Below, piece by piece: positions 8,360-42,906 of a stretch of DNA of 64,000 nt. The notes under the pieces were generated by a model. The model had not been told where the DNA came from. It saw only the letters and a program-made list of their open reading frames with translations, and made no database searches. The DNA comes from a virus. The stretch's first letter is position 1. The number at the start of each line of letters is the position of its first letter. A program made the position numbers and the translations under genes. Location of the stretch: the IMG/VR virus record IMGVR_UViG_3300027963_000040; one strand, given 5' to 3'.

Positions 8360-9647
8360 CCAGACTGGAAGTTGTCTTGCCGTATGGATCCTGCATATTG
8401 TGCTTCTTCATATAGTCATGCCATTCTTGTTCTTCCCACATAGAGGGCGAGACACCATTCCAGAGCGGACGATAATACTTATGATCACGATTAGCACGAC
8501 GTTCTTCGATGTATTGCTTACGAAGCTGCTCATAATCCCAAGCCTTCAGATCAGTCATCTTCTCTCGGAAATAAGCAACGATGGTCATACGATCATTGTC
8601 GTCGCCGATCAGCTCATCATTGCCGTGAATACCTGCATGATTGTTAACCAGAAGCATATCGCCAGGTTGAAGGTTAATAGCAATCCGATACTCAGGAAGA
8701 ATGAACTGACCACCTTTCCATCCTTTACCTTCCGGTCCAGTGACTCCACAAATATTGCTGAAACCAACAGTGAGATCGCCAGCATCGCGATGGCAGGCTG
8801 TGCGCCAATTATGATTGACAGTAAGAGTAGTAAAGACAGTGTCATCAATAAGAAATCGCGGATCAAGTTTGTCAGCTTCATTACGTTGAGCCTTCCATCT
8901 TTCGGGGATTAGTTCCTTGAATTGTTCATTAAGCTTGCGAAGGTAAGGATAGCAAAGCGCAAACTTTTCGAGATTCTTCTCGGTGTATGAGGTAGCACGA
9001 CCGTATGGGATACGCGGATAACGGTCGAAATAACCAGCGATACCAGACATAACCGACTGAGCATAGTTGGTCTCAGAAATGTAATTGCTCAGAACGTTGT
9101 TGGCTTCCTTTCGCTGATCTTCGCGTGACAGATTGTGAAGACCATCAACCCACTTATCAAACCAACCGTGGTATTCCGGATAGTGCTTGCAAACTTCGGA
9201 ACGAAGCCAAACGCGACCGCGAGTCTCTTCCTTCTTTGGGTTTGCTGCATGTTCCGCACGAATTGATTCGATTGATTCTTCTTGGTAGATAGCATTATCG
9301 GGGCGAAGGATAAAATCAAGAATGTCCTGATGATACTCTGTCACCCAATCTCGACCACTACGACCAGCAGCACCAAGCATATCGCCACGCGGTCCAGCAG
9401 CAAGACCACGGTTTTGCGACTCAGTTGCAGCTTCCCTCAGACCAGCATACGCGAAATCACACTCTTCCTTGGTGAAAACATTCCTGCGAAACTTGAAAAT
9501 GATATTGTCTTCAGTAAGATCGCCTGTTACTGTTTCGGCATACAGATCAGTATCTTCTTGAATCACCATATCGTATCGGTCGTTAGTGATGAAAGTGCCT
9601 AGGGTATCTTCGGCATCGATAGCTTTGATTACAAGTGTCTTAACCAT
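8346..9647 (-). CDS. TET/JBP-family 2OG-Fe(II) dioxygenase (5-methylpyrimidine oxidase-like)
   Basis: FTTLTVNHNWRTACHRDAGD (HxD), IHGN (distal His), RMTIVAYFRE. Confidence 0.85.
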   Translation of the reverse strand: MVKTLVIKAIDAEDTLGTFITNDRYDMVIQEDTDLYAETVTGDLTEDNIIFKFRRNVFTKEECDFAYAGLREAATESQNRGLAAGPRGDMLGAAGRSGRDWVTEYHQDILDFILRPDNAIYQEESIESIRAEHAANPKKEETRGRVWLRSEVCKHYPEYHGWFDKWVDGLHNLSREDQRKEANNVLSNYISETNYAQSVMSGIAGYFDRYPRIPYGRATSYTEKNLEKFALCYPYLRKLNEQFKELIPERWKAQRNEADKLDPRFLIDDTVFTTLTVNHNWRTACHRDAGDLTVGFSNICGVTGPEGKGWKGGQFILPEYRIAINLQPGDMLLVNNHAGIHGNDELIGDDNDRMTIVAYFREKMTDLKAWDYEQLRKQYIEERRANRDHKYYRPLWNGVSPSMWEEQEWHDYMKKHNMQDPYGKTTSSLDAFF

Positions 9648-9673
9648 TTGAGGTCTCCTTATTGACTAATTGC

Positions 9674-9702
9674 ATTATACTACGTATATATGGAAAAGTC
9701 AA
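9674..9702 (-). promoter_or_regulatory. sigma70-type promoter for the TET operon
   Basis: TTGACT-17 nt-TATAAT. Confidence 0.8.
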
Positions 9703-10286: not shown

Positions 10287-10810
10287 TCAGGAGGTTGACG
10301 GTTTTTCCAGGAGTGCATGCTTGCCTTCCCGATCTTGTAGTAATTACGGTAGTTGACGATTGGATCTTCGCTGACAACGTATTCGGGAGCCATAGCAGAA
10401 GGCATTGTCGTCATATGATAGTTAGTCAAATTCTTAGGAGGAGATTGCAGCTGGTAGCTGAGTTCCCCGAAACATTTATGAGTTTTACCATAGCGATAGG
10501 TGTATTCTTCGCCGAGAGCAAAAAAGTGCTCTGCAAGCCAGTTGTAGTTTTCAACCGACTTGCGCGCCCATACGGCAGAAGGATGGTTGATGTGTGTAGC
10601 TTGATACAGAACAGTATCGCGCGCATCATCAAGAACCCAACGTTTCACGTTGCGACCAGTCTTTGACTTACCAGCGATTTCTCTACCGTCTAGCACTCTA
10701 TGCGCAGTCGAAAGCAACTGCGCAGATTCTAAAATCATCTTTACAACGTGTTTATCGACCATCCACTGAGCAGCTTGCACAGGGTCAGGTGAGACATAGA
10801 AGATGTTCAC
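10274..10810 (-). CDS. pyrimidine-dimer glycosylase (DenV)-related phage protein
   Basis: MNIFY...DKHVVKMILESAQLLSTAH...THINHPS family signature. Confidence 0.6.
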   Translation of the reverse strand: MNIFYVSPDPVQAAQWMVDKHVVKMILESAQLLSTAHRVLDGREIAGKSKTGRNVKRWVLDDARDTVLYQATHINHPSAVWARKSVENYNWLAEHFFALGEEYTYRYGKTHKCFGELSYQLQSPPKNLTNYHMTTMPSAMAPEYVVSEDPIVNYRNYYKIGKASMHSWKNRQPPEWII

Positions 10811-11286
10811 TTACGTTTCCATTTCCTCAAAGCTTGTTGACGATGGATTGGGTTTGCTTTTTGATAGAAAACCTCGCCATCTAGAAAATCCATACATTGT
10901 TGAAAAGCACGCGCCGTCATACCGGTATATGTTTCAGTTCTAATTTCACCATTAGGAGTAGCGAAACGAACCTTACAATGCTGCGGACGCTTTATCTTAA
11001 CCTGTAATCCGGGATAAGTCAAGCTAATTTCATCAAGCCGAATTTGATCATTGCTTGGCATAACAATTCTTGGGTTGAAACAGACAAAATTCTCTGGAGC
11101 GCCGCGCATACCGAAGATCCTAAGAGGAATCCCGACTTGGGGGGCAGTAAGACAGATTGCGTTGTTATCGTACATGAATTTAATAAGATTTTGAGAGAAC
11201 TCGACTGGATCAAACGGTGGGTTCTTGAAATCAAAAGGTTCTGACTTCTCTTTCAGCTGAGGGTCTCTGTAATCGATGATTTTCAT
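10807..11286 (-). CDS. def: peptide deformylase homolog, catalytic motifs degenerate
   Basis: PDF architecture (APQVG, FNPRI, ARAFQ..DG); EGCLS appears as EISLT and HExDH as QCMDF. Confidence 0.8.
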   Translation of the reverse strand: MKIIDYRDPQLKEKSEPFDFKNPPFDPVEFSQNLIKFMYDNNAICLTAPQVGIPLRIFGMRGAPENFVCFNPRIVMPSNDQIRLDEISLTYPGLQVKIKRPQHCKVRFATPNGEIRTETYTGMTARAFQQCMDFLDGEVFYQKANPIHRQQALRKWKRK

Positions 11287-12989
11287 TCTGCAATCCTAGA
11301 AAAAGATTTTGTCTTGACGAACTTGATAACATTCTCGAACTTGTCGTGTAGAGTGTCTCTATGTGAGATAATGAACACGTTGGAATCCCTGCTGATATTC
11401 TGTAGAATCTTGAGCAAGTCTTCAGCCGAGTTACCGTCAAGAGAACTATCGAACACTTCATCGAGAATCAAAAGATTTGTGCTCAGAGAGTTACGAAGCT
11501 TGGCTACTGCTCTCCAGGTGAACAGAATAGCCAGGTCGATCTTCTGTTTTTCGCCTTCACTGAAAGATGCGTAGCTGAACTCATCGCGATAGCGAGACTT
11601 GATGACTTCATTGAACTGCTCGTCTAGATTGAATTCAACGAACAGATCAAACTCAGACAGATACTTATTGATCAGCTTGTTGATAACTGGTATGTATTGG
11701 TTCACGATACGAGTCTTGATACCTCCATCTTTCAACAACAAAGCTGCAGCATTGAGGACACGCTTGTCCTCCTGTAGTATATTATAATGATTTGACAGAT
11801 TAGTCAAGTCTTTTTCTAGGTCAACAACCTTCAAATCAGAATTTTCTTTTGAAGTCTTCTTAGCTTCATCAAGCTCTTTTGATATTGTTCTAACTTGATC
11901 GTTAAACATCTGAATCTTCAGAGTTTCATGAGATGCCTTGGTTCTAAGATCGTCGCATTCCTTATCAATTTCAAGTATCTTGCTGAGCTCCAAGTTGGTT
12001 TCTTCATACTTGTTCGCCAACTGCGACAGACCTGACTCAACTTCTTTGATTTCGTCCTCACGTTTTCCTACGATCTCGCAGCTAAACTCAGAACTGATTT
12101 CTTGTTTGCAAGTCGGGCAGTTGTCGTGATTATTGAAAAAATCAATCTCTTTCGAAAGAGAAGCAGTTTTGATCTCCATCTGCGCTCTCAGAGTTTTCAG
12201 TTTCTCAACTTTATTCTTAACGCTACCGAGGTTAGTAAGATAATCTGATTTTGATTTGATTACATCAGCTAACTCACTTTTAATCTGTCTAGCCTCTTCA
12301 ATCTTTTTTTCAACATCAGCAAGAGCAGTTTTCTTCTCTTGAATGAATTGTTCGTTCTTGAATTGAACTTCTTTCAGGTGCTCCCTGACCATCTTGATCT
12401 TAGCTTCAACGATCTTTCGGTCGTTTTCATTATCCTGAATGAGACTGGCATTGTCTTGCACTTTCTCTTTCAATAGAGTATTCATTATAGTGAACACTTG
12501 CAAGTCGAGTAGATCTTCAATGATCGTCCGACGCTGAGAAGCAGGAAGCTGCATGAAAGGAACGAAAGAAGCAGAACCAAGAACAACAACCTGACAAAAA
12601 GACTTGTAGTTGATCTTCAGAACGTTCTTTTCTAGAACTTCCTGGTAGTCTCTCATTTCAGCCGATTGGTTGACTAGGTTATCGTTACAGTAAACCTCGA
12701 AGACAGCAGGCTTGATGCCTCTGACGATTTTGTAATGATTTGATTGAATAGAGAACTCGAGCTCTACAACCAACTCTTTACGAGTGATTGTGTTGAGTAG
12801 CTGCGGCTTGTTAATGTTTCTGAAAGTCTTACCGAACAGAGCAAAAGTAAGAGCGTCAAGGATGGTTGACTTACCTGCTCCATTCTCGCCCACAATCAGA
12901 GTTGTTCCTGGTGTAGACAAGCTTAATTCTGTGAAGATGTTTCCTGTTGAGAGGAGATTTTTCCATCTTATTGTTTTGAAGTGAATCAT
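11283..12989 (-). CDS. gp46: recombination endonuclease subunit, Rad50/SbcC-like
   Basis: GENGAGKST, CPTC zinc hook, FSEGEK signature, LDEVFD. Confidence 0.95.
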   Translation of the reverse strand: MIHFKTIRWKNLLSTGNIFTELSLSTPGTTLIVGENGAGKSTILDALTFALFGKTFRNINKPQLLNTITRKELVVELEFSIQSNHYKIVRGIKPAVFEVYCNDNLVNQSAEMRDYQEVLEKNVLKINYKSFCQVVVLGSASFVPFMQLPASQRRTIIEDLLDLQVFTIMNTLLKEKVQDNASLIQDNENDRKIVEAKIKMVREHLKEVQFKNEQFIQEKKTALADVEKKIEEARQIKSELADVIKSKSDYLTNLGSVKNKVEKLKTLRAQMEIKTASLSKEIDFFNNHDNCPTCKQEISSEFSCEIVGKREDEIKEVESGLSQLANKYEETNLELSKILEIDKECDDLRTKASHETLKIQMFNDQVRTISKELDEAKKTSKENSDLKVVDLEKDLTNLSNHYNILQEDKRVLNAAALLLKDGGIKTRIVNQYIPVINKLINKYLSEFDLFVEFNLDEQFNEVIKSRYRDEFSYASFSEGEKQKIDLAILFTWRAVAKLRNSLSTNLLILDEVFDSSLDGNSAEDLLKILQNISRDSNVFIISHRDTLHDKFENVIKFVKTKSFSRIAE

Positions 12990-33764: not shown

Positions 33765-34412
33765 ATGAGCTTACAAAAAATAAGATTTAGCGAACTTGAT
33801 TTTAAATATGATACCGACAGATTATTAAAAGAACTCAATATATTAAAATTTGTTCAATATTTGACTGATGCATCAACTCATACTAATCACTATAAAATGC
33901 CCATATTCAATCAATCACAAATAAAAAATTGTAAAATTTGGAAAGGTATTAATTTAACAAATCCGCCCGATTCAGTTTTTATAAAAAATTCTAGTTTGAG
34001 CAAAATCCGTAATGAGAATAGCGAACTAGAGTGGGTTTGGGTCAAAGAATTTCCTTACATGCAATATATAGTCAAGAGTCTAGGTTTTTTAAAAACAAAT
34101 CTTGTAAGAGTTCTTGTTTTAGAACCCGGATCTATCGGTCCCGTTCACAACGATAACTCTACTGGATCTTACTATAGTGTTAACAGAACGTCGATAACTC
34201 TTAACATAAGCGATGGCGGAAGCCCATTGGTTTTTTTGAACGGAAACGAAATTCATAGTAAGATGCCTGGTCCTACATTTCTATTTAGAGATGATTGTTG
34301 GCATGGGATTCCGGAAACCAAAACACAAAGGTTTCAAGTGAGAATAAACGGAATGATTAACGAAACTGTAAATAAATTGTTATTACAAAATACAATTATG
34401 GAGATTATCTAA
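33765..34412 (+). CDS. 2OG-Fe(II) oxygenase, aspartyl/asparaginyl beta-hydroxylase-like
   Basis: VRVLVLEPGSIGPVHND (HxD), WHG (distal His), downstream Arg. Confidence 0.7.
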   Translation: MSLQKIRFSELDFKYDTDRLLKELNILKFVQYLTDASTHTNHYKMPIFNQSQIKNCKIWKGINLTNPPDSVFIKNSSLSKIRNENSELEWVWVKEFPYMQYIVKSLGFLKTNLVRVLVLEPGSIGPVHNDNSTGSYYSVNRTSITLNISDGGSPLVFLNGNEIHSKMPGPTFLFRDDCWHGIPETKTQRFQVRINGMINETVNKLLLQNTIMEII

Positions 34413-35272
34413 TGAAAATTTACCTTGATCAAGTTCCCGACTCTTTGACTGTTATGGGACACATAAAAGCGACAACGGATTGGAACAAAGCTTGCGAATC
34501 TGTTAAGCCGAAAACAAAAACACATCAATATGAATTCATTATACAGGATTTTGATCAACAATCAATCTTTAATGCAATTCAACATAGCCTTGCAATCTAT
34601 GGAGAACATGGCTGGAAATCTTCTGAAGGCGAATCAAAAGATTATGTCGGATTCAGTCTTGTTTACAATCCAGATCATCAGGAGTATTCGAATCTTCATA
34701 GTAGCACTCTTGGAACCTCTAAAAATCAAAAAAATCAATTTTTTTGGGGTAAAACAGAAACTCATACAAAATTAAAAAATAGTTATTTCGATACGCTCGG
34801 ATTTAATAAACAAACTCCTGCTAGTCAGTTTGATGCGCTCGGAAAGTTTCTTTCTAGAAGAAAATGTCAAATGATACGAGGAAGATTATCTTCTATAGAT
34901 GGTACACAAATAGAAAATACATCTGTTGGCTGGCACAGAGACGAACCCGTATTTGAAAATTTAAGATTGAACGTGCCAATTGTTACTACGAAAGATTACC
35001 TATTTCAGATGGAAGGTAAAGAACCTTGTCATCTTGAAGTCGGTAAAGCATACAGCTGGGATACAAATACGCCTCATAGAGTTTTTAATACAAAGTGGTC
35101 CGAAACGAAACGGACACATCTTGTTATAGGTTTCAGCCCTTGGTTAAATTATAACGAAAAAGAACGTTATTGGGAATCAAATGAATTTTATGGAAAAAAA
35201 CATCCATTTGATATGCTGATAGATGAAGATGTGTTCGCCGGTCTAGATTATAATCAGATGTTCCATTCGTAA
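34412..35272 (+). CDS. 2OG-Fe(II) oxygenase, aspartyl/asparaginyl beta-hydroxylase-like
   Basis: WHRDE, RLNVPI, HLEVGKAYSWDTNTPHRV, RTHLV. Confidence 0.75.
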   Translation: MKIYLDQVPDSLTVMGHIKATTDWNKACESVKPKTKTHQYEFIIQDFDQQSIFNAIQHSLAIYGEHGWKSSEGESKDYVGFSLVYNPDHQEYSNLHSSTLGTSKNQKNQFFWGKTETHTKLKNSYFDTLGFNKQTPASQFDALGKFLSRRKCQMIRGRLSSIDGTQIENTSVGWHRDEPVFENLRLNVPIVTTKDYLFQMEGKEPCHLEVGKAYSWDTNTPHRVFNTKWSETKRTHLVIGFSPWLNYNEKERYWESNEFYGKKHPFDMLIDEDVFAGLDYNQMFHS

Positions 35273-35682
35273 CGATGTGCTGTCGGTTCAATACCGAGGC
35301 TTTTAAAATTCTCAATCATTTCAGGTGAAGCGAGTAATGAAACGATAGTTGTCAAACGTTTCACACCAAGTTCTTTTAATGCGTCAATAGCCATCTGACG
35401 TGTCGTGATTGCAATTCTTTGTTCTCTATATTCCGGTTTCACATAAGTCAAATTAGAGTCGTAAAACTCCGACGTGATTTTATGATAAACCCTAATTCCT
35501 ACTGGAACATCATCAACTTTTAGTAGGAAAAAAATGCCATTCGTAACATTGATATGAGGAATTTCTGGAGCTAGAGCTCCTTTTTCCATTAATTCTTTCC
35601 AGGAATCTCCCCAAAAACCAGCAACAATACCGAAACGTTCTTTATTTTCTTCTGGTTTTACTTGTTCAATTGTAATATTCAT
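35254..35682 (-). CDS. GNAT-family acyltransferase
   Basis: YVKPEYREQRIA motif-A-like segment, LKELGVKRL, size 142 aa. Confidence 0.65.
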   Translation of the reverse strand: MNITIEQVKPEENKERFGIVAGFWGDSWKELMEKGALAPEIPHINVTNGIFFLLKVDDVPVGIRVYHKITSEFYDSNLTYVKPEYREQRIAITTRQMAIDALKELGVKRLTTIVSLLASPEMIENFKSLGIEPTAHRYEWNI

Positions 35683-35695
35683 TTAAATCTCCAAT

Positions 35696-37108
35696 TTACT
35701 TTTTTGCAACTGTTGGAATTGCTTCTTCTCTAATCTGCGGTACTAATTGCTCAATGCCTCTAATTTTACCCCACAAATCTTGTCTATCTTCTGGTAGCTG
35801 ATAATCTTCATCAATAGCAGTAATCTTGTAAGGAAGTGCTCCGGTAGCGGCTTCTAACGCAATAGCAAAGAATGGAAGATGATCCGAGTAAGCTGCATCA
35901 CAAGACAACTTGAAATACTCTCCTTCAAGAAACATACAGGAACCTTTACATACCTGTAATAGAGGACACTTGGCGCAATCATCTCTGAACTTCCAATGCG
36001 TCGATGTATTCAATTTCACATTGGCTAATTGATTAACATGCCCAATTCTATGAGACTTACCATTCGGAGCTTTTGAAACAGCCGTGACATTCTGACAGGT
36101 GAGCACATTGCCCTGAAGATCAACAGCCATGGTATCTTCTTGATCCATACCACACTTCTGACCTAAAGTGTCGGCTGATCTGTAATTACCCCAGCTATTA
36201 AGCCATTCTTGAACTCTTTGTTTGACAATGATGAAACGATTAATATCATTATTACGGATCGCCATCAAAGTAGTCATTCTATGACCTACATGTTCTTCAT
36301 CACCTTGTGGCACATTTTTTTTACCACCTTCATCATATACATCGATGAATCCACCTTCACCGATCATGAAATTGCTCTGTGGATTTAAATTAAACAGATC
36401 CTCAAAGAATGTCTGAATACTAGCGCGATCCATGTTTTCGCGATGCACCATTGAATTGATGCTGATTCTACCTTCAGGAAGGAAGCGATTGAATAATTTA
36501 AACAAGATTTTTCTTTGAACTGGATCTTCAAACGGATCTGGACCTCTTACATTCTGACCTGGACCATCGTGAGATACAGCCATGCTAAAACCCATGTCAT
36601 ACAACCAATCAATGATTTCTTCTGTGATCAAAGAGCCGTTAGTAATAACCGAAAATTTTGTTTTTGGATATTTTTCACGAAGACGTTCAGCCAATGGCTT
36701 CATGATCTTCCAATACACAAAAGGTTCACCACCCCAGAATTCAATTTTCTCTGGTGGGATCTTAAGCCAACTGTCCATGTTATTGATAAATCGATCCATC
36801 AATTTTGTATTCGAATGATCGATGTTCGGTACAAATCTTTGAGAACAATATTCACAAGAGTAGTTACAAGAAAGACCCATCTGAATCTTCAGAAGTTTAA
36901 TGTCCGACTTACTACCTGGAGTATTGACTGAGATTGGCTTTACAGCATCGTTTGACTTTTGAGACCATACCGGTTTGATGTTAACCAATTTGTTCTTAGA
37001 ATCAAAAATCTCAGAAGTCATATTATCGTAAATATAACTTACTTGATCCAATTTTTCAATTTTGTTATCAACAAAAACTGGTTTGGTACATTCTAATAAA
37101 AATTTCAT
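35696..37108 (-). CDS. radical SAM/SPASM-domain peptide or protein maturase
   Basis: CNYSCEYC, WGGEP, ITNG, SHDG; seven-Cys SPASM (KCG, TCQ, CAKCPLLQVCKGSC, SCD). Confidence 0.92.
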   Translation of the reverse strand: MKFLLECTKPVFVDNKIEKLDQVSYIYDNMTSEIFDSKNKLVNIKPVWSQKSNDAVKPISVNTPGSKSDIKLLKIQMGLSCNYSCEYCSQRFVPNIDHSNTKLMDRFINNMDSWLKIPPEKIEFWGGEPFVYWKIMKPLAERLREKYPKTKFSVITNGSLITEEIIDWLYDMGFSMAVSHDGPGQNVRGPDPFEDPVQRKILFKLFNRFLPEGRISINSMVHRENMDRASIQTFFEDLFNLNPQSNFMIGEGGFIDVYDEGGKKNVPQGDEEHVGHRMTTLMAIRNNDINRFIIVKQRVQEWLNSWGNYRSADTLGQKCGMDQEDTMAVDLQGNVLTCQNVTAVSKAPNGKSHRIGHVNQLANVKLNTSTHWKFRDDCAKCPLLQVCKGSCMFLEGEYFKLSCDAAYSDHLPFFAIALEAATGALPYKITAIDEDYQLPEDRQDLWGKIRGIEQLVPQIREEAIPTVAKK

Positions 37109-37136: not shown

Positions 37137-37556
37137 TTATTTACACTGACAATTACAATCACATGCACAATCGCATGCACAAGCACAATTACAATTACAG
37201 TTATTGGTAACAACACCATATGGATTGCAATTATAAGTGCAAGCACAATTGCAATTGTATTGAAGCCAATATCTACCGTCACAATTTGCACAATTTACAT
37301 TATAACAATTTAGACAATTAACACAATTAGTTGGAAAATCGCATGCACAATTACAATTACAGGCACAATTTCCATTATTACAATTACCGTCATTGTTTTT
37401 CTGATACCATTCTTTATTATGAGAAGTGTTCAAATCCCAACCACGTTGACCATCTTTTGTATTATAATAGATGTCTGACATAGCAAACTGACCACCTGCG
37501 CCAATAACAGAGCGCACGTCACCAAAAGATATTGTTCCTGAAGTAGGTGTTCCCAT
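37137..37556 (-). CDS. Asn-Cys repeat protein B (candidate rSAM substrate or fibre-tip protein)
   Basis: 25 Cys in the last ~81 aa; GGA RBS; paralog of 37578-37985. Confidence 0.85.
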   Translation of the reverse strand: MGTPTSGTISFGDVRSVIGAGGQFAMSDIYYNTKDGQRGWDLNTSHNKEWYQKNNDGNCNNGNCACNCNCACDFPTNCVNCLNCYNVNCANCDGRYWLQYNCNCACTYNCNPYGVVTNNCNCNCACACDCACDCNCQCK

Positions 37557-37577
37557 ATCAATTTATTTCCGAATTAT

Positions 37578-37985
37578 TTATTTACACTGACAATCACAAT
37601 TACAATTACAATTACAATTGTTTTGAACACATTGTGAAGCATTGCAATTATACGGTCCGCAATTTCCATCATTACAGTTATTTTGTAACCCATAACCACC
37701 GCAATTGATACAATTAACATTTCCTGCATAAACACAATTTTGACAATTTTGTGGGAAATCGTAGCAATTACAGTTGAAAGTACAATTGCCGTTATTACAG
37801 TTGCCTTCGTTGGTCTTGTTGATATAAGCTTTACCGTAATAGTTACTCATAGCATAAGATTGTTGACCAGGTCTGGTGTTATTGTAAACATAAGCCATAT
37901 CGATGATTGTACCACTGGCGCCACCGCCATTGATTTCAACGTGAATATCATTTAAGCTTAAAGGACCACTGCCCGGTAACGTCAT
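37578..37985 (-). CDS. Asn-Cys repeat protein A (candidate rSAM substrate or fibre-tip protein)
   Basis: 18 Cys, 15 preceded by Asn; starts 1 nt after the stop of the S74 fibre gene. Confidence 0.85.
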   Translation of the reverse strand: MTLPGSGPLSLNDIHVEINGGGASGTIIDMAYVYNNTRPGQQSYAMSNYYGKAYINKTNEGNCNNGNCTFNCNCYDFPQNCQNCVYAGNVNCINCGGYGLQNNCNDGNCGPYNCNASQCVQNNCNCNCNCDCQCK

Positions 37986-37986
37986 G

Positions 37987-39252
37987 TTAAATTCTCTTTT
38001 CTAGTTCTTCAACTTTAGCGGAAAGCTCTTTGATGGCTTCAATTAACAACGGCACAATCTTTTCATACTGAACCGTTTTATAGTTTTCGCCTGATTTAGA
38101 GACATATGTATCCTCATCTATATATTCTCTATCAAATGGAGCCATCTGCACTGCTTCGGGAAGAATTGCTTCAATTTCGTGAGCAATAACACCAACTTGT
38201 TTGCTTTGATCTTTATAACCAAAACCTGCGGCAGTATCATTGCTATTGAATGTCACACCACGAATTGCTTTGACTTTATTCAGAGCATCTGGTATTAGAG
38301 TGATATTGGTTTTTAATCTTACATCAGAGTAATAAGCAATGATGTTACCCGAAGTATGTGTTTCACCTGAAGTGTAAGTCGAGCGAGTGAGAACAATATG
38401 AGCGCCATCCCAATAACTTGCAACCGCAAGGGTACCTTCGTAATATACTGGACCAACAACACCGCTTGATTGCACATAGCCATTGAAATCAAACCTGTCA
38501 CCACCATTGAAGTATAATCGCCTGTCGCCATTTCCAAATACTACTTGTCCTGTGCTACCACTACTTATGTAGGTACGAATTGACCCCGTTACCCCGATGT
38601 CAGAGGTAAATGTATCACCTGCTCTATTTGCAGGTGTATAACCCAATCTTGCTGGAATGTTTGTATAATAAGATGATAGCTGTCCGCTAAAATAAGTTGC
38701 ATTGTTAACAGTGCCATTAATTGCATTAGAATAAGCAGTTGCAGAATTGCCAGTGATTTGACTTTGAATTGTAGCAAGAGTTACGCCGCCATGATATGTG
38801 CTATTATTAGAAGTTAACGTTGCAACGTTAGCCGATAAACCAGCTGTAGTTTGATAGAGTGCAGCAGAATTAGCAACAGCATTACTGTAGGCAGAAGCAG
38901 CATTACCAGTGATCTGACCTTGAACCGTTGTTAATGTCAACCCACTAAAGTTATTTGAATTATTAGCAGTACCTTGATAGATTGTGGAATTGACTGTAAC
39001 ACCAGAAAGTGATAATTGTCCACCAGTAATACTTGTGTTAACAGTAGCATTACCAACAAAATATGATGATGTACTTATTGTGACGTTAGCACCAACCACA
39101 ATTGATGTGGTAGCATTAGCTGTTGCTGTATTAACGGATGTTGCATTGAGTGATGTTGCAGTGATGACTGATGCATTGACTGCAGTTGAATTAGCTGTGA
39201 AGTTTCCGTTGACGGTTAGCCCGTTCTTTACTACGAAATTGTTATTTGCCAT
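37987..39252 (-). CDS. tail fibre with C-terminal peptidase-S74 intramolecular chaperone
   Basis: YSDVRLKTNI, VGVIAHE, YEKIVPLLIEAIKEL. Confidence 0.9.
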   Translation of the reverse strand: MANNNFVVKNGLTVNGNFTANSTAVNASVITATSLNATSVNTATANATTSIVVGANVTISTSSYFVGNATVNTSITGGQLSLSGVTVNSTIYQGTANNSNNFSGLTLTTVQGQITGNAASAYSNAVANSAALYQTTAGLSANVATLTSNNSTYHGGVTLATIQSQITGNSATAYSNAINGTVNNATYFSGQLSSYYTNIPARLGYTPANRAGDTFTSDIGVTGSIRTYISSGSTGQVVFGNGDRRLYFNGGDRFDFNGYVQSSGVVGPVYYEGTLAVASYWDGAHIVLTRSTYTSGETHTSGNIIAYYSDVRLKTNITLIPDALNKVKAIRGVTFNSNDTAAGFGYKDQSKQVGVIAHEIEAILPEAVQMAPFDREYIDEDTYVSKSGENYKTVQYEKIVPLLIEAIKELSAKVEELEKRI

Positions 39253-39285: not shown

Positions 39286-39293
39286 TATTTATA
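39286..39293 (-). promoter_or_regulatory. late promoter of the fibre/Cys-protein/rSAM operon
   Basis: TATAAATA. Confidence 0.75.
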
Positions 39294-39663
39294 CCCAAGG
39301 TAAAGCTTTAGGCAATATAGGATTTTTTAAAAGATTTAATTTTTTTTGCAATAATTCATTAATTTTATCATCCGGAGACAATGCATATTTTTCGCCAGGC
39401 ATTTGTCCAGGTATAGTTTTTGCTGTAATTATACTTTTAATCCATGACACAATAAGATCTTTGTTTAGTTCGTTAAATGGTACATAATCTTGCGGTAGAA
39501 CATCGACAGCGGTGAATTCAGTTTCGCCATCAAAAACGACTGTATTACCATCTTCGTCGATTGCAATTTTTTTCCAATGAATTAACACAACAGCATCAGG
39601 ATGATCCGGTGATTCATTTCTTACATATAAATTAGTAATTTCCCAATCATATTTTATCGTCAT
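39289..39663 (-). CDS. tail-fibre-associated hypothetical protein
   Basis: 124 aa, between two S74 fibres, ends LPW. Confidence 0.7.
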   Translation of the reverse strand: MTIKYDWEITNLYVRNESPDHPDAVVLIHWKKIAIDEDGNTVVFDGETEFTAVDVLPQDYVPFNELNKDLIVSWIKSIITAKTIPGQMPGEKYALSPDDKINELLQKKLNLLKNPILPKALPWV

Positions 39664-39666
39664 TGT

Positions 39667-41496
39667 TTATTCTTTCTGTAAGAGTTTTAACTGTTTTTTC
39701 AAATCCTCAACTTCACCAAGTAGACCTTTTACAGCCTCAACCAAAACTGGTATTAGTTTTTTTTCATCTACTGTTAAGTATGGGTCTTCTGGATCATAAT
39801 TGATGTCATCTTTCGGTGTGAGCGTCCCATCAGCTTCTTTATTTTTATATTGTAACAACTGAACTGAAGCTGCTTGAGGTAATACTGCTTTGACTTCTTG
39901 TGCAATAAGACCTATCTGCACACCAGGCTCGGTATTCTCTAATATTTTGTTGCCAATATCATTCCATTCGAAACGATAACCGTTAAGACCATTAATGATA
40001 TCACGCCAATCATCAATCTTTTTTATATTCTTTTTGAGGCGTCTATCTGACCAATAAGCTATGATATTACCTGTGGCATATATATTACCGCCTGCTTCAA
40101 ATAGCCAACGTGTTACATCGTCTTGTGTACGAAAACCATGAGACCACTGATTTGACGCACCACCTCTATAATACGAAGTGTCACCATAAACAAAATTCAA
40201 TCGTGCCCAGCCTTCAGAAGAATAATTCCAAGTTCCAGTATTAAGGTTTAAATAATTTAATCGTGACTGTCCATTTGGATTGCAATAATACCCAGTGTCA
40301 TCACTATCGTAGAATATAGGAGCTCTTAATGAACCACCCGCCTGAAGAAAAGCGCTCGTCTCAAAGTTAGTGCCATTAAAGTATAGATAGTTACCGCCGT
40401 TACCAAAATAATAAACACCAGTAGTTGGCGAGCCAGGTCTATAAGCATTTACATCGCCTGCAACATGAAGCTTATATGTCGGTGAAGTCACACCAATTCC
40501 CGTGTTACCATTAGAATCAATACGCACGCGTTCAGCATTATTTGTAGCAAAAACCAATGTTCCATCAGCTGGTGAAAACATTCCACCGTCAGTATCATTG
40601 GTGCCAAAAGAATATCCAGCAACACCCGTTCCATAAGTTGCACCACCCAAAGCCCTGATACCACCATTCACATCAAGTCTTGCGGTTGGTGAAGTTTGAT
40701 TGATTCCCATATTACCACTAGAATCAATACGCACACGTTCAGCTGATGATGTATACAAACTTATGATTCCATTGGCAGCACTTCCAAGTTGCCCAATATG
40801 CATTACCATATTATTTGCAATAGAAAACATTCTGGGATTATTTGTACCAGCAACATCAACATATAAGCCCACGGTTGTATTGTCTGGGTTTAGAAAATTT
40901 ATTTCTCCACCTTCGCTGCTGCCGCCATTTAAGAATGTACCAACACCATCAGTTTTACTACCACCAACTACATGCAATTTACCAGTGGGAGATGCCGTAC
41001 CAATACCTACGTTACCATTAGCAACAAAATAAGCTGAAGTTCCAATAGTGAATGTGTTAGTAGAAGAGCTATTAGCAAATGTGGCAGTGCCTTGGTAAAT
41101 TGTAGAATTAACGGTTACACCTGATATAGAAATCTGACCTGCAGTTATATTTGTATTTACTGATGTATTGCCGACATAATGCGTTGTAGCATTGATAAAT
41201 GAATTTGTACTAACATATAAAAATGAGCTAGAAGATAAAGTGACATTGCCAGACACATTAGCGGCGCCAACAATATCAAGTTTTGCTGTAGGAGATGCAG
41301 TACCAATACCTACGTTTCCATTAGCAACAAAATAAGCTGAGGTTCCAATTGTTGCAACATTGGTCGTTGTGGTCAAATTAGCCGAATTAGCAGTACCAAC
41401 AGACATCGATGTAATAGCAGTCGCATTAGCGGTTATGCTATTATACATAGCATTTGCTATAAAACCAAAATTTGAGAGATCATTTGTAATAGTCAT
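39667..41496 (-). CDS. tail fibre with peptidase-S74 chaperone
   Basis: GNVGIGTASPT repeats, ERVRIDSxGN, WSDRRLKKNI, GLIAQEV. Confidence 0.9.
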   Translation of the reverse strand: MTITNDLSNFGFIANAMYNSITANATAITSMSVGTANSANLTTTTNVATIGTSAYFVANGNVGIGTASPTAKLDIVGAANVSGNVTLSSSSFLYVSTNSFINATTHYVGNTSVNTNITAGQISISGVTVNSTIYQGTATFANSSSTNTFTIGTSAYFVANGNVGIGTASPTGKLHVVGGSKTDGVGTFLNGGSSEGGEINFLNPDNTTVGLYVDVAGTNNPRMFSIANNMVMHIGQLGSAANGIISLYTSSAERVRIDSSGNMGINQTSPTARLDVNGGIRALGGATYGTGVAGYSFGTNDTDGGMFSPADGTLVFATNNAERVRIDSNGNTGIGVTSPTYKLHVAGDVNAYRPGSPTTGVYYFGNGGNYLYFNGTNFETSAFLQAGGSLRAPIFYDSDDTGYYCNPNGQSRLNYLNLNTGTWNYSSEGWARLNFVYGDTSYYRGGASNQWSHGFRTQDDVTRWLFEAGGNIYATGNIIAYWSDRRLKKNIKKIDDWRDIINGLNGYRFEWNDIGNKILENTEPGVQIGLIAQEVKAVLPQAASVQLLQYKNKEADGTLTPKDDINYDPEDPYLTVDEKKLIPVLVEAVKGLLGEVEDLKKQLKLLQKE

Positions 41497-41687
41497 TGAT
41501 TATTACTTTCTTCTGCTGGCTTGATAATAAGATCGTCAGATTCAACTAATTGCATGATGTTGGCGTAGTCAGTGTTGGCTGGGTCGATGGGCACAGATGA
41601 AGTAACGCCATTGATATCGACCCTTATGCCGCCAATTGTTGACGTGCCTAAAATGCAATAATATTGCGCGTTTGTGTATTTCTGCAT
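41493..41687 (-). CDS. small fibre-associated protein (copy 2)
   Basis: 64 aa from ATG 41687, VPIDPANTDY; paralog of 42712-42906. Confidence 0.8.
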   Translation of the reverse strand: MQKYTNAQYYCILGTSTIGGIRVDINGVTSSVPIDPANTDYANIMQLVESDDLIIKPAEESNNQ

Positions 41688-41689
41688 TA

Positions 41690-42715
41690 TTAAAGCTCCG
41701 CTGCAAAAGTTAAATAAGTAGTCGAATCTATTGTAGAAAATGCAAACCCGGCTGGAACAGACACTGCCGCAAATCGCATTGCCATTGAACCGCTGCCCGC
41801 AAATATTGATGGAGTTCCAGATATATTCCCTGCCGTCCATGTACCAACAATTGTTGCAGTTGGATTTGCTCTCATTGTTGCTGGATAAGTCAATGTTAAA
41901 GTGCCGTAGTTACCCGAAGTGGCATATCCAGCAAAATAAATATCAGCAGCCGTGTTGCCGCCAAGCTTTAAAAAATACCGCTGGCACAGCATCAACGTCT
42001 CGCCAATCGGCAGCCGCTCAAATGGAGTAGCTACACTACCAGCTTCTAGTTGAACATTGCCAATTGTCCAGGTTCCGGAAGTCTGCGCGCCCACCGTCAG
42101 CACAATCTCAATCCCGGTTGTGGCTGCGCTCGGGACGCTGACAGAAGCTGTGTAGTTAGTGACGGTGCTAGTCACGGTAAACGTGCCGGTGGCAATCTGC
42201 GTGCGCGTGGGGCTTGCTAACGTGCCAAAGGTATCAGCCGTATTGGCGTAGTAAGCCGTCCATGTCACTGTAGTCAGCAGCGAGTTTGCCAGATCAACGC
42301 TAAAGGTTGCCGTGCCGTTGTTTAGATCATAACTATTGATAGCCTCAACTCGCTGACCAAAACCGATTGCAGTAACGCTCGCCGCTCCTGTGAACCTGTA
42401 ACGATACTGATCGATACCAGAACCAGCAACACGTTGCCCTGTTACGTTAGCTCCAGTACAATAACCATAGAAACGATCCACGCTGTAGGCTAGAGCAGCT
42501 GCAGCAGTAAATGTTTGCGCCGATCCAGCATTGCGCTGGTCAACAGCCATACCGCCATTAATGATTCTATTACGGCGATATCCATTTGTTAATGTTGGTA
42601 ATACCGTAGTACCATTGATTGTCATTCCAGTCACTGCAGTATTATTAGCAGTTATGCTATTATATACAGCATTAGCTATTGTAGCTACCTTGGAAAGACC
42701 TACTGAATCAGTCAT
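41690..42715 (-). CDS. tail fibre / receptor-binding protein
   Basis: RNRIING...QLEAGSVATPFE...LCQRY module with variable C-terminus. Confidence 0.8.
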   Translation of the reverse strand: MTDSVGLSKVATIANAVYNSITANNTAVTGMTINGTTVLPTLTNGYRRNRIINGGMAVDQRNAGSAQTFTAAAALAYSVDRFYGYCTGANVTGQRVAGSGIDQYRYRFTGAASVTAIGFGQRVEAINSYDLNNGTATFSVDLANSLLTTVTWTAYYANTADTFGTLASPTRTQIATGTFTVTSTVTNYTASVSVPSAATTGIEIVLTVGAQTSGTWTIGNVQLEAGSVATPFERLPIGETLMLCQRYFLKLGGNTAADIYFAGYATSGNYGTLTLTYPATMRANPTATIVGTWTAGNISGTPSIFAGSGSMAMRFAAVSVPAGFAFSTIDSTTYLTFAAEL

Positions 42716-42906
42716 TGATTATTGCTTTCTTCTGCTGGTTTGATAATAAGATCACCAGATTCAACTAGTTGCATGATGTTGGAATAGTCAGTATTGGCTG
42801 GGTCAAGTGGGACAAACGAAAGCACTCCATTGATGTCAACAGAAATACAAGTCACGATACCGCTGTATTTATCTGTAATATATTGAATATTAGTGTATGT
42901 AATCAT
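42712..42906 (-). CDS. small fibre-associated protein (copy 1)
   Basis: VPLDPANTDY; paralog of 41493-41687. Confidence 0.8.
   Translation of the reverse strand: MITYTNIQYITDKYSGIVTCISVDINGVLSFVPLDPANTDYSNIMQLVESGDLIIKPAEESNNQ

Follow-up and report, generated by a model that had tools for sequence, protein, structure and literature searches.

Phage host range is set by fibre tips, and S74 domains (PF13884), which cleave themselves from the fibres that carry them, act on trimers. In Salmonella phage S16 the distal fibre protein gp37 carries Peptidase_S74 at residues 638-698, and the gene for gp38 comes next. In T2-type phages, gp38 caps the gp37 trimer at its tip, binding through its N-terminal part (PMC12892980). 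Here we describe a related arrangement in the IMG/VR virus record IMGVR_UViG_3300027963_000040, a stretch of 64,000 nucleotides (nt) referred to as the window, where two small cysteine-rich proteins, named A and B, are encoded between an S74 tail fibre and a radical S-adenosylmethionine (SAM)/SPASM enzyme. As in the T2-type gp37/gp38 systems (S16, PDB 6F45; PP01), a distal S74 fibre is followed by a gene for a small, putatively adhesin-type protein, and some proteins that share the N-terminal module of A and B carry the full GP38 domain, whereas A and B do not. The knob of T2-type gp38 is a polyglycine sandwich, while that of A and B would be an Asn/Cys core paired with a radical SAM enzyme. 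In our reading, which we hold to be the probable one, A and B are fibre-tip proteins that combine an adaptor module with an enzymatically modified, probably thioether-cross-linked Asn/Cys knob; both their location in the virion and the chemistry are what we infer.

To our knowledge, radical SAM chemistry of this kind has been described until now only for natural peptide products and a small number of enzymes. In the QhpD/QhpC system of quinohaemoprotein amine dehydrogenase, a radical SAM/SPASM enzyme builds Cys thioether cross-links in a small structural subunit. The QhpD model matches the window enzyme with an E value of 3.7e-15, yet with a score of 55.5 against a cut-off of 453, and the contexts differ, a periplasmic enzyme there and a phage fibre here, where the acceptors are likely Asn and not Asp or Glu. 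The ranthipeptide and sactipeptide systems (PapB/PapA, CteB/SCIFF, NxxcB/NxxcA) resemble the window in placing a radical SAM/SPASM gene beside that of a Cys-rich substrate, and the NxxC motifs of the window fit the chemistry of NxxcB, which sets the precedent by making a Cys-Asn beta-thioether in such motifs (PMC9389541). These systems differ from the window, where the enzyme model has no recognition element (RRE) of the kind found in maturases of ribosomally synthesised peptides with post-translational modifications (RiPPs), neither protease nor exporter was seen, the “leader” consists of an adhesin-type module, and whole tail fibres are among the substrates of window-type enzymes. Of the classical RiPP traits, the strict linkage of the substrate gene to its modifying enzyme is present here, in 70 of 71 viral loci, but the N-terminus is common to adhesin-like proteins outside the Cys family and is not private to a precursor. 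The closest solved fold is that of anSMEcpe (PDB 4K37), likewise a SPASM enzyme without RRE that acts on a protein Cys and not on a leader-tagged peptide; unlike its setting, however, this one shows no sulfatase and no CxPxR motif, and the model TIGR03942 reaches 38.8 against a cut-off of 349. Literature searches for this system, for a phage fibre with a radical SAM/SPASM enzyme and for a viral RiPP returned no description.

Protein A (37578-37985, minus strand) has 135 amino acids (aa), with 18 Cys, 15 of them as Asn-Cys, and 29 Asn, and protein B (37137-37556, minus strand) has 139 aa, with 25 Cys, 16 of them as Asn-Cys. The Cys content of 13% in A and 18% in B compares with a median of 0.4% and a maximum of 1.9% among 16 other window proteins. 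The N-terminal module of A opens with MTLPGSGPLSLNDI..., its first Cys is residue 63, and the core shows GNCNNGNC at 61, DFPxNCxNC at 76 and NVNCxNC at 89 before the C-terminus ...NCNCNCNCDCQCK; in B the first Cys is residue 59, with GNCNNGNC at 57, DFPxNCxNC at 73, NVNCxNC at 86 and the C-terminus ...CDCACDCNCQCK. Both proteins close with (xC)n-QCK, and NxxC motifs number 7 in A and 11 in B. The counts of Cys and Asn-Cys, the Cys-free N-termini and the motifs given for both proteins in a first-pass annotation of this DNA are exact. The sulfatase-type CxPxR motif, as read from the sequences, occurs in neither A nor B, and neither has a Pfam match, hence neither contains the GP38 polyglycine-sandwich domain. 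In the AlphaFold2 (AF2) model of A, residues 1-60 form a small folded domain (pLDDT 70-87). The two proteins are 51% identical; a recent tandem duplication was considered and was ruled out by this identity and by B being at least as close to proteins of other phages.

Relatives were found by homology search in 27 metagenome homologues and 71 viral loci (L numbers below designate loci), and the N-terminus is free of Cys in 72 of 73 members. The protein atlas returned unnamed viral clusters only. With the model of A, Foldseek against BFVD gave weak N-terminal matches only, among them a Gp38-domain protein with an E value of 0.75, and a wide VIA-align search with the same fold gave no match. No cultured phage was found by tblastn of A or by megablast of the 9-kb region, which is partly an effect of the low-complexity filter.

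The first-pass annotation had proposed a profile search with the N-terminus alone. A profile of 59 positions made from the N-termini of the family was searched against 1.84 billion representatives and hit 2,880 clusters at E<=1e-3, of which 150 reach E<=1e-10, and all 150 matches listed begin at residue 1 of their protein. The NCNNGN core is found in only 48 of the best 148 matches, while about 100 run into unrelated C-termini, with lengths of up to 675 aa. A profile of these modules from proteins without the Cys core (non-Cys modules) aligns to the N-termini of the Cys family with an hhalign probability of 99.3 (E 7e-21). Pfam searches of 70 non-Cys members identified Gly_rich_2 (7), GP38 (3), fn3 (3), Lcl_C (2) and, once each, PA14, GLEYA, Fibrinogen_C and NPCBM_assoc; the partner domains are of the adhesin or lectin type. 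The whole GP38 profile comes after the module in two of these proteins, P0169 (E 2.4e-20) and P0089 (7e-18), and the GP38 part of the module-GP38 proteins aligns to the solved gp38 chains 9V85 and 6F45_D. The proposal that the N-terminus of A and B belongs to a wider module and is not a leader private to the family is thus borne out, as it heads adhesin-like phage proteins, some of them with a complete GP38. The family, hitherto undescribed and with the signature MTLPxSGxIS, corresponds to PHROGs 26817 and 26746, and the PHROG matches to protein A itself are weak. The Met-Thr-Leu-Pro start is almost invariant and the module was never found internally, which suggests that the free N-terminus of the module itself matters.

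Module genes lie directly behind S74 fibre genes far more often than expected by chance. Eighty viral loci were chosen for non-Cys module genes, giving 79 unique genes, and 36 of these start between -14 and +13 nt from the stop of an S74 open reading frame (ORF), with three more in tandem after another module gene. In the reverse sample, 80 loci chosen for the S74 domain alone, with the module ignored, the S74 fibre is directly followed by a module gene in 17. The pattern given in the first-pass annotation, small proteins with a PxSGxIS start behind S74 fibres, is therefore real. Among cultured phages, a module gene stands behind an annotated tail-fibre gene in Alteromonas AD45-P1 (gp019), Vibrio vB_VpaP-MS02, PhiImVa-1, BUCT194 and Rhizobium Pasto. 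The analogy with T2-type gp38 drawn at the outset is well founded, but a direct homology of the N-terminus to that of S16 gp38 was looked for and not found. The module profile had no match in the PDB, and a likeness between the module and the S16 gp38 N-terminus that had been noticed by eye was dropped after hhalign and this PDB profile search gave it no support.

Locus L135 (4470-6113) has three genes in tandem behind an S74 fibre gene, each starting with the module, which suggests a set of alternative tips. Among 72 loci only the window has two Cys genes, the other 71, including the closest relative L004, carrying one. Two S74 fibres and two Cys proteins had suggested one tip protein per fibre; however, the Cys proteins follow only the 421-aa fibre, and after the 609-aa fibre comes a DUF7936 protein. 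One fibre with two alternative caps is at least as likely, an option to which the tandem module genes of L135 point.

The second half of A and B goes with the radical SAM/SPASM enzyme. In 70 of the 71 viral loci the enzyme adjoins the Cys gene on the same strand, upstream or downstream (40-94% identity, E <1e-100), and the one locus without it lies on a contig that stops at that point; the radical SAM enzyme was found in none of the 80 non-Cys module loci. Owing to this strict pairing, the Asn/Cys core is almost certainly a substrate of the adjacent enzyme. To describe the proteins as carrying a fibre-tip anchor rather than a RiPP leader, as was done at first, is consequently a false choice, since chemistry of the RiPP type and a structural role can be combined in one protein.

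The enzyme scores above the cut-offs of Pfam Radical_SAM PF04055 (42.6 bits against 29.5) and of SPASM TIGR04085 (33.2 against 27), and the CX3CX2C motif and all seven SPASM Cys are invariant in 67 homologues. Its top NCBIfam matches are the thioether-forming maturases PapB, QhpD, CcpM and SCIFF. The AF2 model (pLDDT 92) begins with a beta-hairpin without helices at residues 1-35 and contains no RRE, that is, no PqqD-like winged helix, and the match to CteB starts past the RRE of that protein; judged from this model, the enzyme looks leader-independent. The top Foldseek matches were anSMEcpe 4K37 (E 6e-13, TM 0.53-0.66) and CteB 5WGG (8e-12), followed by ChlB, TigE and SuiB. In the enzyme tree the window enzyme falls into a small clade with those of L004 and L006 and the second enzyme of L024, and most other partner enzymes of the Cys family form one well-supported clade. 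L024 is a viral contig of 162 kb, in which two radical SAM/SPASM genes (8421-9680 and 10595-12034) come after the only Cys gene; the second of them shares 70% identity with the window enzyme, in whose small clade it lies.

Related enzymes also accompany fibres of another kind. Ralstonia phage RSP15 and Achromobacter phage JWF have homologues with 43-50% identity in their tail-fibre modules, the JWF one labelled by its depositors as an anaerobic sulfatase-maturating enzyme. JWF gp028 is a 483-aa fibre with NCNCDCNCNCSC directly before a Hint self-cleaving domain, and RSP15 ORF048, a side tail fibre, ends in NCQCGN. A further 84 loci were selected by the enzyme only, mostly from bacterial genomes or metagenome-assembled genomes (MAGs) of freshwater Burkholderiales, where they are probably prophages. 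An upstream (NC)n ORF on the same strand was present in 61 of them, four had a member of the module-plus-Cys family, and 19 had neither, most of these 19 being contigs too short to show the upstream region. The (NC)n run lies 0-11 aa from the C-terminus in 58 of the 61 tail proteins and precedes a Hint domain in the other three; two of the (NC)n tail proteins carry a collagen repeat and a weak CBM_5_12 match. Genes for 2-oxoglutarate (2OG) oxygenases lie between the (NC)n tail protein and the enzyme in prophage-like loci. In the radical SAM tree, the window enzyme is placed within the clade that accompanies (NC)n-tailed fibres. In L160 (3587-4499), three tandem genes for small proteins of 92-109 aa, each ending in (NC)n, stand between an S74 fibre gene and a radical SAM gene paired with one for an oxygenase. 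The contigs L167 and L180, which were binned as an Akkermansia muciniphila MAG, carry radical SAM and (NC)n-tail loci that hardly differ from the Limnohabitans ones; they look misbinned or phage-derived, and not like the source of a gut-bacterial gene.

The Asn/Cys family itself occurs in four architectures. Besides the stand-alone proteins of about 125-140 aa, the type present in the window, the core is fused to an S74 domain in L020 and L063 (32.1 and 29.1 bits against a cut-off of 22), to a Hint domain in L006, L036 and L037, and elsewhere to a domain of about 170 aa with a hydrophobic end. After self-cleavage by S74 or Hint, the mature protein would end in the (xC)n run, as the stand-alone forms do, and, as S74 acts on trimers, the core-S74 fusions argue for a core able to take the end position in a trimeric, fibre-like assembly. 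The domain of about 170 aa has no Pfam match; it begins near SKIICAKLYEFG, follows the Cys core in about 20 loci, for example L005 (8001-8903), and also forms the C-terminus of a fibre-module protein of 616 aa in the cultured Synechococcus phage SynMITS9220M01 (gene 028, L157 2669-4519), where it is preceded by a run of 33 Pro and 8 Arg.

Taken together, the position of the module behind S74 fibres and that of the core beside the radical SAM enzyme make a fibre-tip adaptor with a matured knob the simplest model. The module of about 55 aa would dock on the trimeric fibre end bared by self-cleavage of the S74 domain, by analogy with gp38 on gp37, and the Asn/Cys core with its (xC)n tail would be modified by the adjacent radical SAM/SPASM enzyme, which presumably acts in the cytoplasm late in infection. 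The likeliest reaction would be the formation of Cys-to-Asn thioether cross-links of the NxxC type; AspH-type or 2OG oxygenases probably assist, and the AspH-like protein may hydroxylate Asn. Thus linked, the core would become a stiff knob on the distal tip that withstands proteases and redox changes. A broader version, which we put forward more tentatively, is that the module serves as a general plug for unrelated binding domains on S74-processed trimers, a principle akin to that of gp38 and common to environmental phages at large, the cap in this case being a ladder of Cys-Asn thioethers made by radical chemistry of the RiPP type, perhaps with hydroxylated Asn. No receptor-binding scaffold cross-linked by an enzyme would then have been seen in a virion before.

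Several results weigh against a cross-linked fibre-tip knob. In the AF2 model of A the core has no confident fold (confidence <50), and the specific maturase models all score far below their cut-offs with the window enzyme (25 families listed), the best being PapB with 65.9 bits against 340. The closest fold is that of a formylglycine-forming enzyme, so that a chemistry other than thioether formation may apply. The module profile showed no detectable similarity to the N-terminus of S16 gp38 (hhalign probability 0.1), and no virion proteomics of carriers was found in the literature, where JWF and AD45-P1 were searched. In about half of the family loci a fibre gene was not seen beside the Cys/enzyme pair, and these fibre-less loci are islands of oxygenase, halogenase-like and second radical SAM genes that resemble biosynthetic clusters. 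A conserved leader with a variable core is, moreover, also typical of RiPPs, as in the Nif11 and NHLP leader families. A true phage RiPP, in which the N-terminus of 55-60 aa would guide the enzyme as a leader and be removed, and the cross-linked peptide would be freed at lysis as a toxin, signal or metal binder, could account for the Cys-free conserved N-terminus and varying core, for the radical SAM/SPASM partner that the Cys protein has in 70 of 71 loci, for RiPP maturases being the best family matches of that enzyme, and for the many loci in which no fibre was seen nearby and the surrounding genes are of the oxygenase, halogenase-like, desaturase-like and second radical SAM kinds. Nevertheless, we regard it as unlikely, given that the supposed leader is common to at least 100 non-Cys proteins (150-675 aa) with adhesin domains, in whose 80 loci the enzyme was never found, and that the enzyme clade is also found with (NC)n-tailed fibres that have no such N-terminus. 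The enzyme model without RRE and neighbourhoods in which neither protease nor exporter recurs also argue against it, and the core-S74 fusions are ill-suited to a secreted peptide.

Two further explanations keep the proteins at the fibre and change what they do there. As an assembly factor, the module would bind the nascent fibre, aid its folding or trimerisation and then be released, in the manner of T4 gp38, a chaperone that leaves after assembly (PMC12892980). The small size of the proteins and a gene directly behind the fibre gene agree with that precedent, but S74 fibres bring their own intramolecular chaperone (PF13884), the module partners PA14, GLEYA, Fibrinogen_C and GP38 (the T2 adhesin type) fit receptor binding and not chaperoning, and a transient helper would hardly call for a modifying enzyme of its own, so that we consider this role more unlikely still than that of a RiPP. 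Alternatively, the tip could bear no thioethers at all, its Cys array holding a metal or the enzyme making formylglycine in an anSME-like manner. Metal sites at fibre tips are established for T4 gp37 (His/Fe) and gp12, the Cys of A and B (13-18%) stand in CxC runs, anSMEcpe is the closest solved fold (E 6e-13), and the depositors of JWF chose the name of an anaerobic sulfatase-maturating enzyme; on the other hand, the CxPxR motif is in neither A nor B, CteB nearly equals anSME as a structural match (8e-12), the top sequence-family matches are thioether formers, and plain metal binding needs no radical SAM partner in 70 of 71 loci. A metal-binding or aldehyde tip is, in our judgement, the least probable of these explanations.

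If the fibre-tip reading is true, it would link RiPP enzymology with phage adsorption. Many environmental phages and prophages would then swap tip domains on self-cleaving fibres by means of a common adaptor, among them T4-like and N4-like phages, with freshwater Burkholderiales among the hosts, and a new, very stable Cys/Asn scaffold would become available for the engineering of binding proteins. The idea can be tested in cultivable carriers: Achromobacter phage JWF, Ralstonia phage RSP15 and two candidate prophages with the module-plus-Cys form, those of Paraburkholderia sp. BCC1886 (L212) and Polynucleobacter sp. JS-Safj-400b-B2 (L222).

The window belongs to a T4-like myovirus, for which portal, major head protein, sheath, terminase and a gp13-like adaptor were found. 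On the minus strand the order is S74 fibre (609 aa), DUF7936 protein, S74 fibre (421 aa), A, B, radical SAM/SPASM enzyme and GNAT-like protein, and two oxygenase-like genes on the plus strand converge on this cluster (Table 1). Peptidase_S74 lies above the Pfam cut-off of 22 bits in both fibres (51.3 and 59.6 bits), with the SDxRLK motif at residue 309 in the 421-aa fibre (SDVRLK) and at residue 483 in the 609-aa fibre. The junction between the stop of the 421-aa fibre and the start of protein A reads TAA-C-ATG, so that A begins 1 nt past the stop.

Table 1. Features of the fibre and Asn/Cys locus in the window, with the evidence for each.
Feature	Position	Strand	Evidence
Protein A module, residues 1-60, Cys-free, proposed fibre-tip adaptor	37806..37985	-	AF2, hhalign, N-terminus profile
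Protein A Asn/Cys core, residues 61-135 and stop, proposed radical SAM substrate and tip knob	37578..37805	-	Cys counts, conserved Cys columns
Protein B, 139 aa, module 1-56 and core 57-139 (25 Cys)	37137..37556	-	Same architecture as A
Radical SAM/SPASM enzyme, 470 aa, proposed maturase	35696..37108	-	Pfam, TIGR04085, AF2, Foldseek
Tail fibre, 421 aa, C-terminal S74 self-cleaving chaperone domain	37987..39252	-	Peptidase_S74 E 1.5e-13
Second S74 tail fibre, 609 aa	39667..41496	-	Peptidase_S74 E 3.7e-16
DUF7936 protein, 3' of the 609-aa fibre	39289-39663	-	Pfam
AspH-like cupin oxygenase, 286 aa, possible Asn hydroxylase	34412..35272	+	Asp_Arg_Hydrox, 21.6 bits, below cut-off
ORF of 215 aa, coupled to the cupin gene, possible second oxygenase	33765..34412	+	HxD...H pattern; cassette membership inferred from position only
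GNAT-like acetyltransferase, 142 aa, downstream of the radical SAM gene	35254..35682	-	Acetyltransf_1 19.3 bits, below cut-off; phrog_1249 match

Oxygenase genes also recur beside the Cys genes elsewhere, and in prophage loci. Among L004-L074, PF13759 2OG oxygenases were found in 45 loci, often in several copies, and AspH-like PF05118 proteins in 28, followed by Trp-halogenase-like flavoenzymes (19), a second, different radical SAM protein of about 505 aa (12) and fatty-acid-desaturase-like proteins (9); no protease and no transporter or exporter was among the recurrent neighbour families of the Cys loci. In L051, as in Ralstonia phage RSP15, the radical SAM enzyme has a homologue of the window cupin at its side, and the 215-aa ORF coupled to the cupin gene has no Pfam or NCBIfam match. 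The GNAT-like protein was rejected as a member of the conserved system, a homologue being present only in the closest relative, L004.

Small ORFs also follow the two non-S74 fibre genes of the window, which encode proteins of 341 and 709 aa. The products of both, at 41493-41840 and 42712-42906, end in ...DPANTDY..IMQLVES.DLIIKPAEESNNQ and represent a different kind of small fibre partner.

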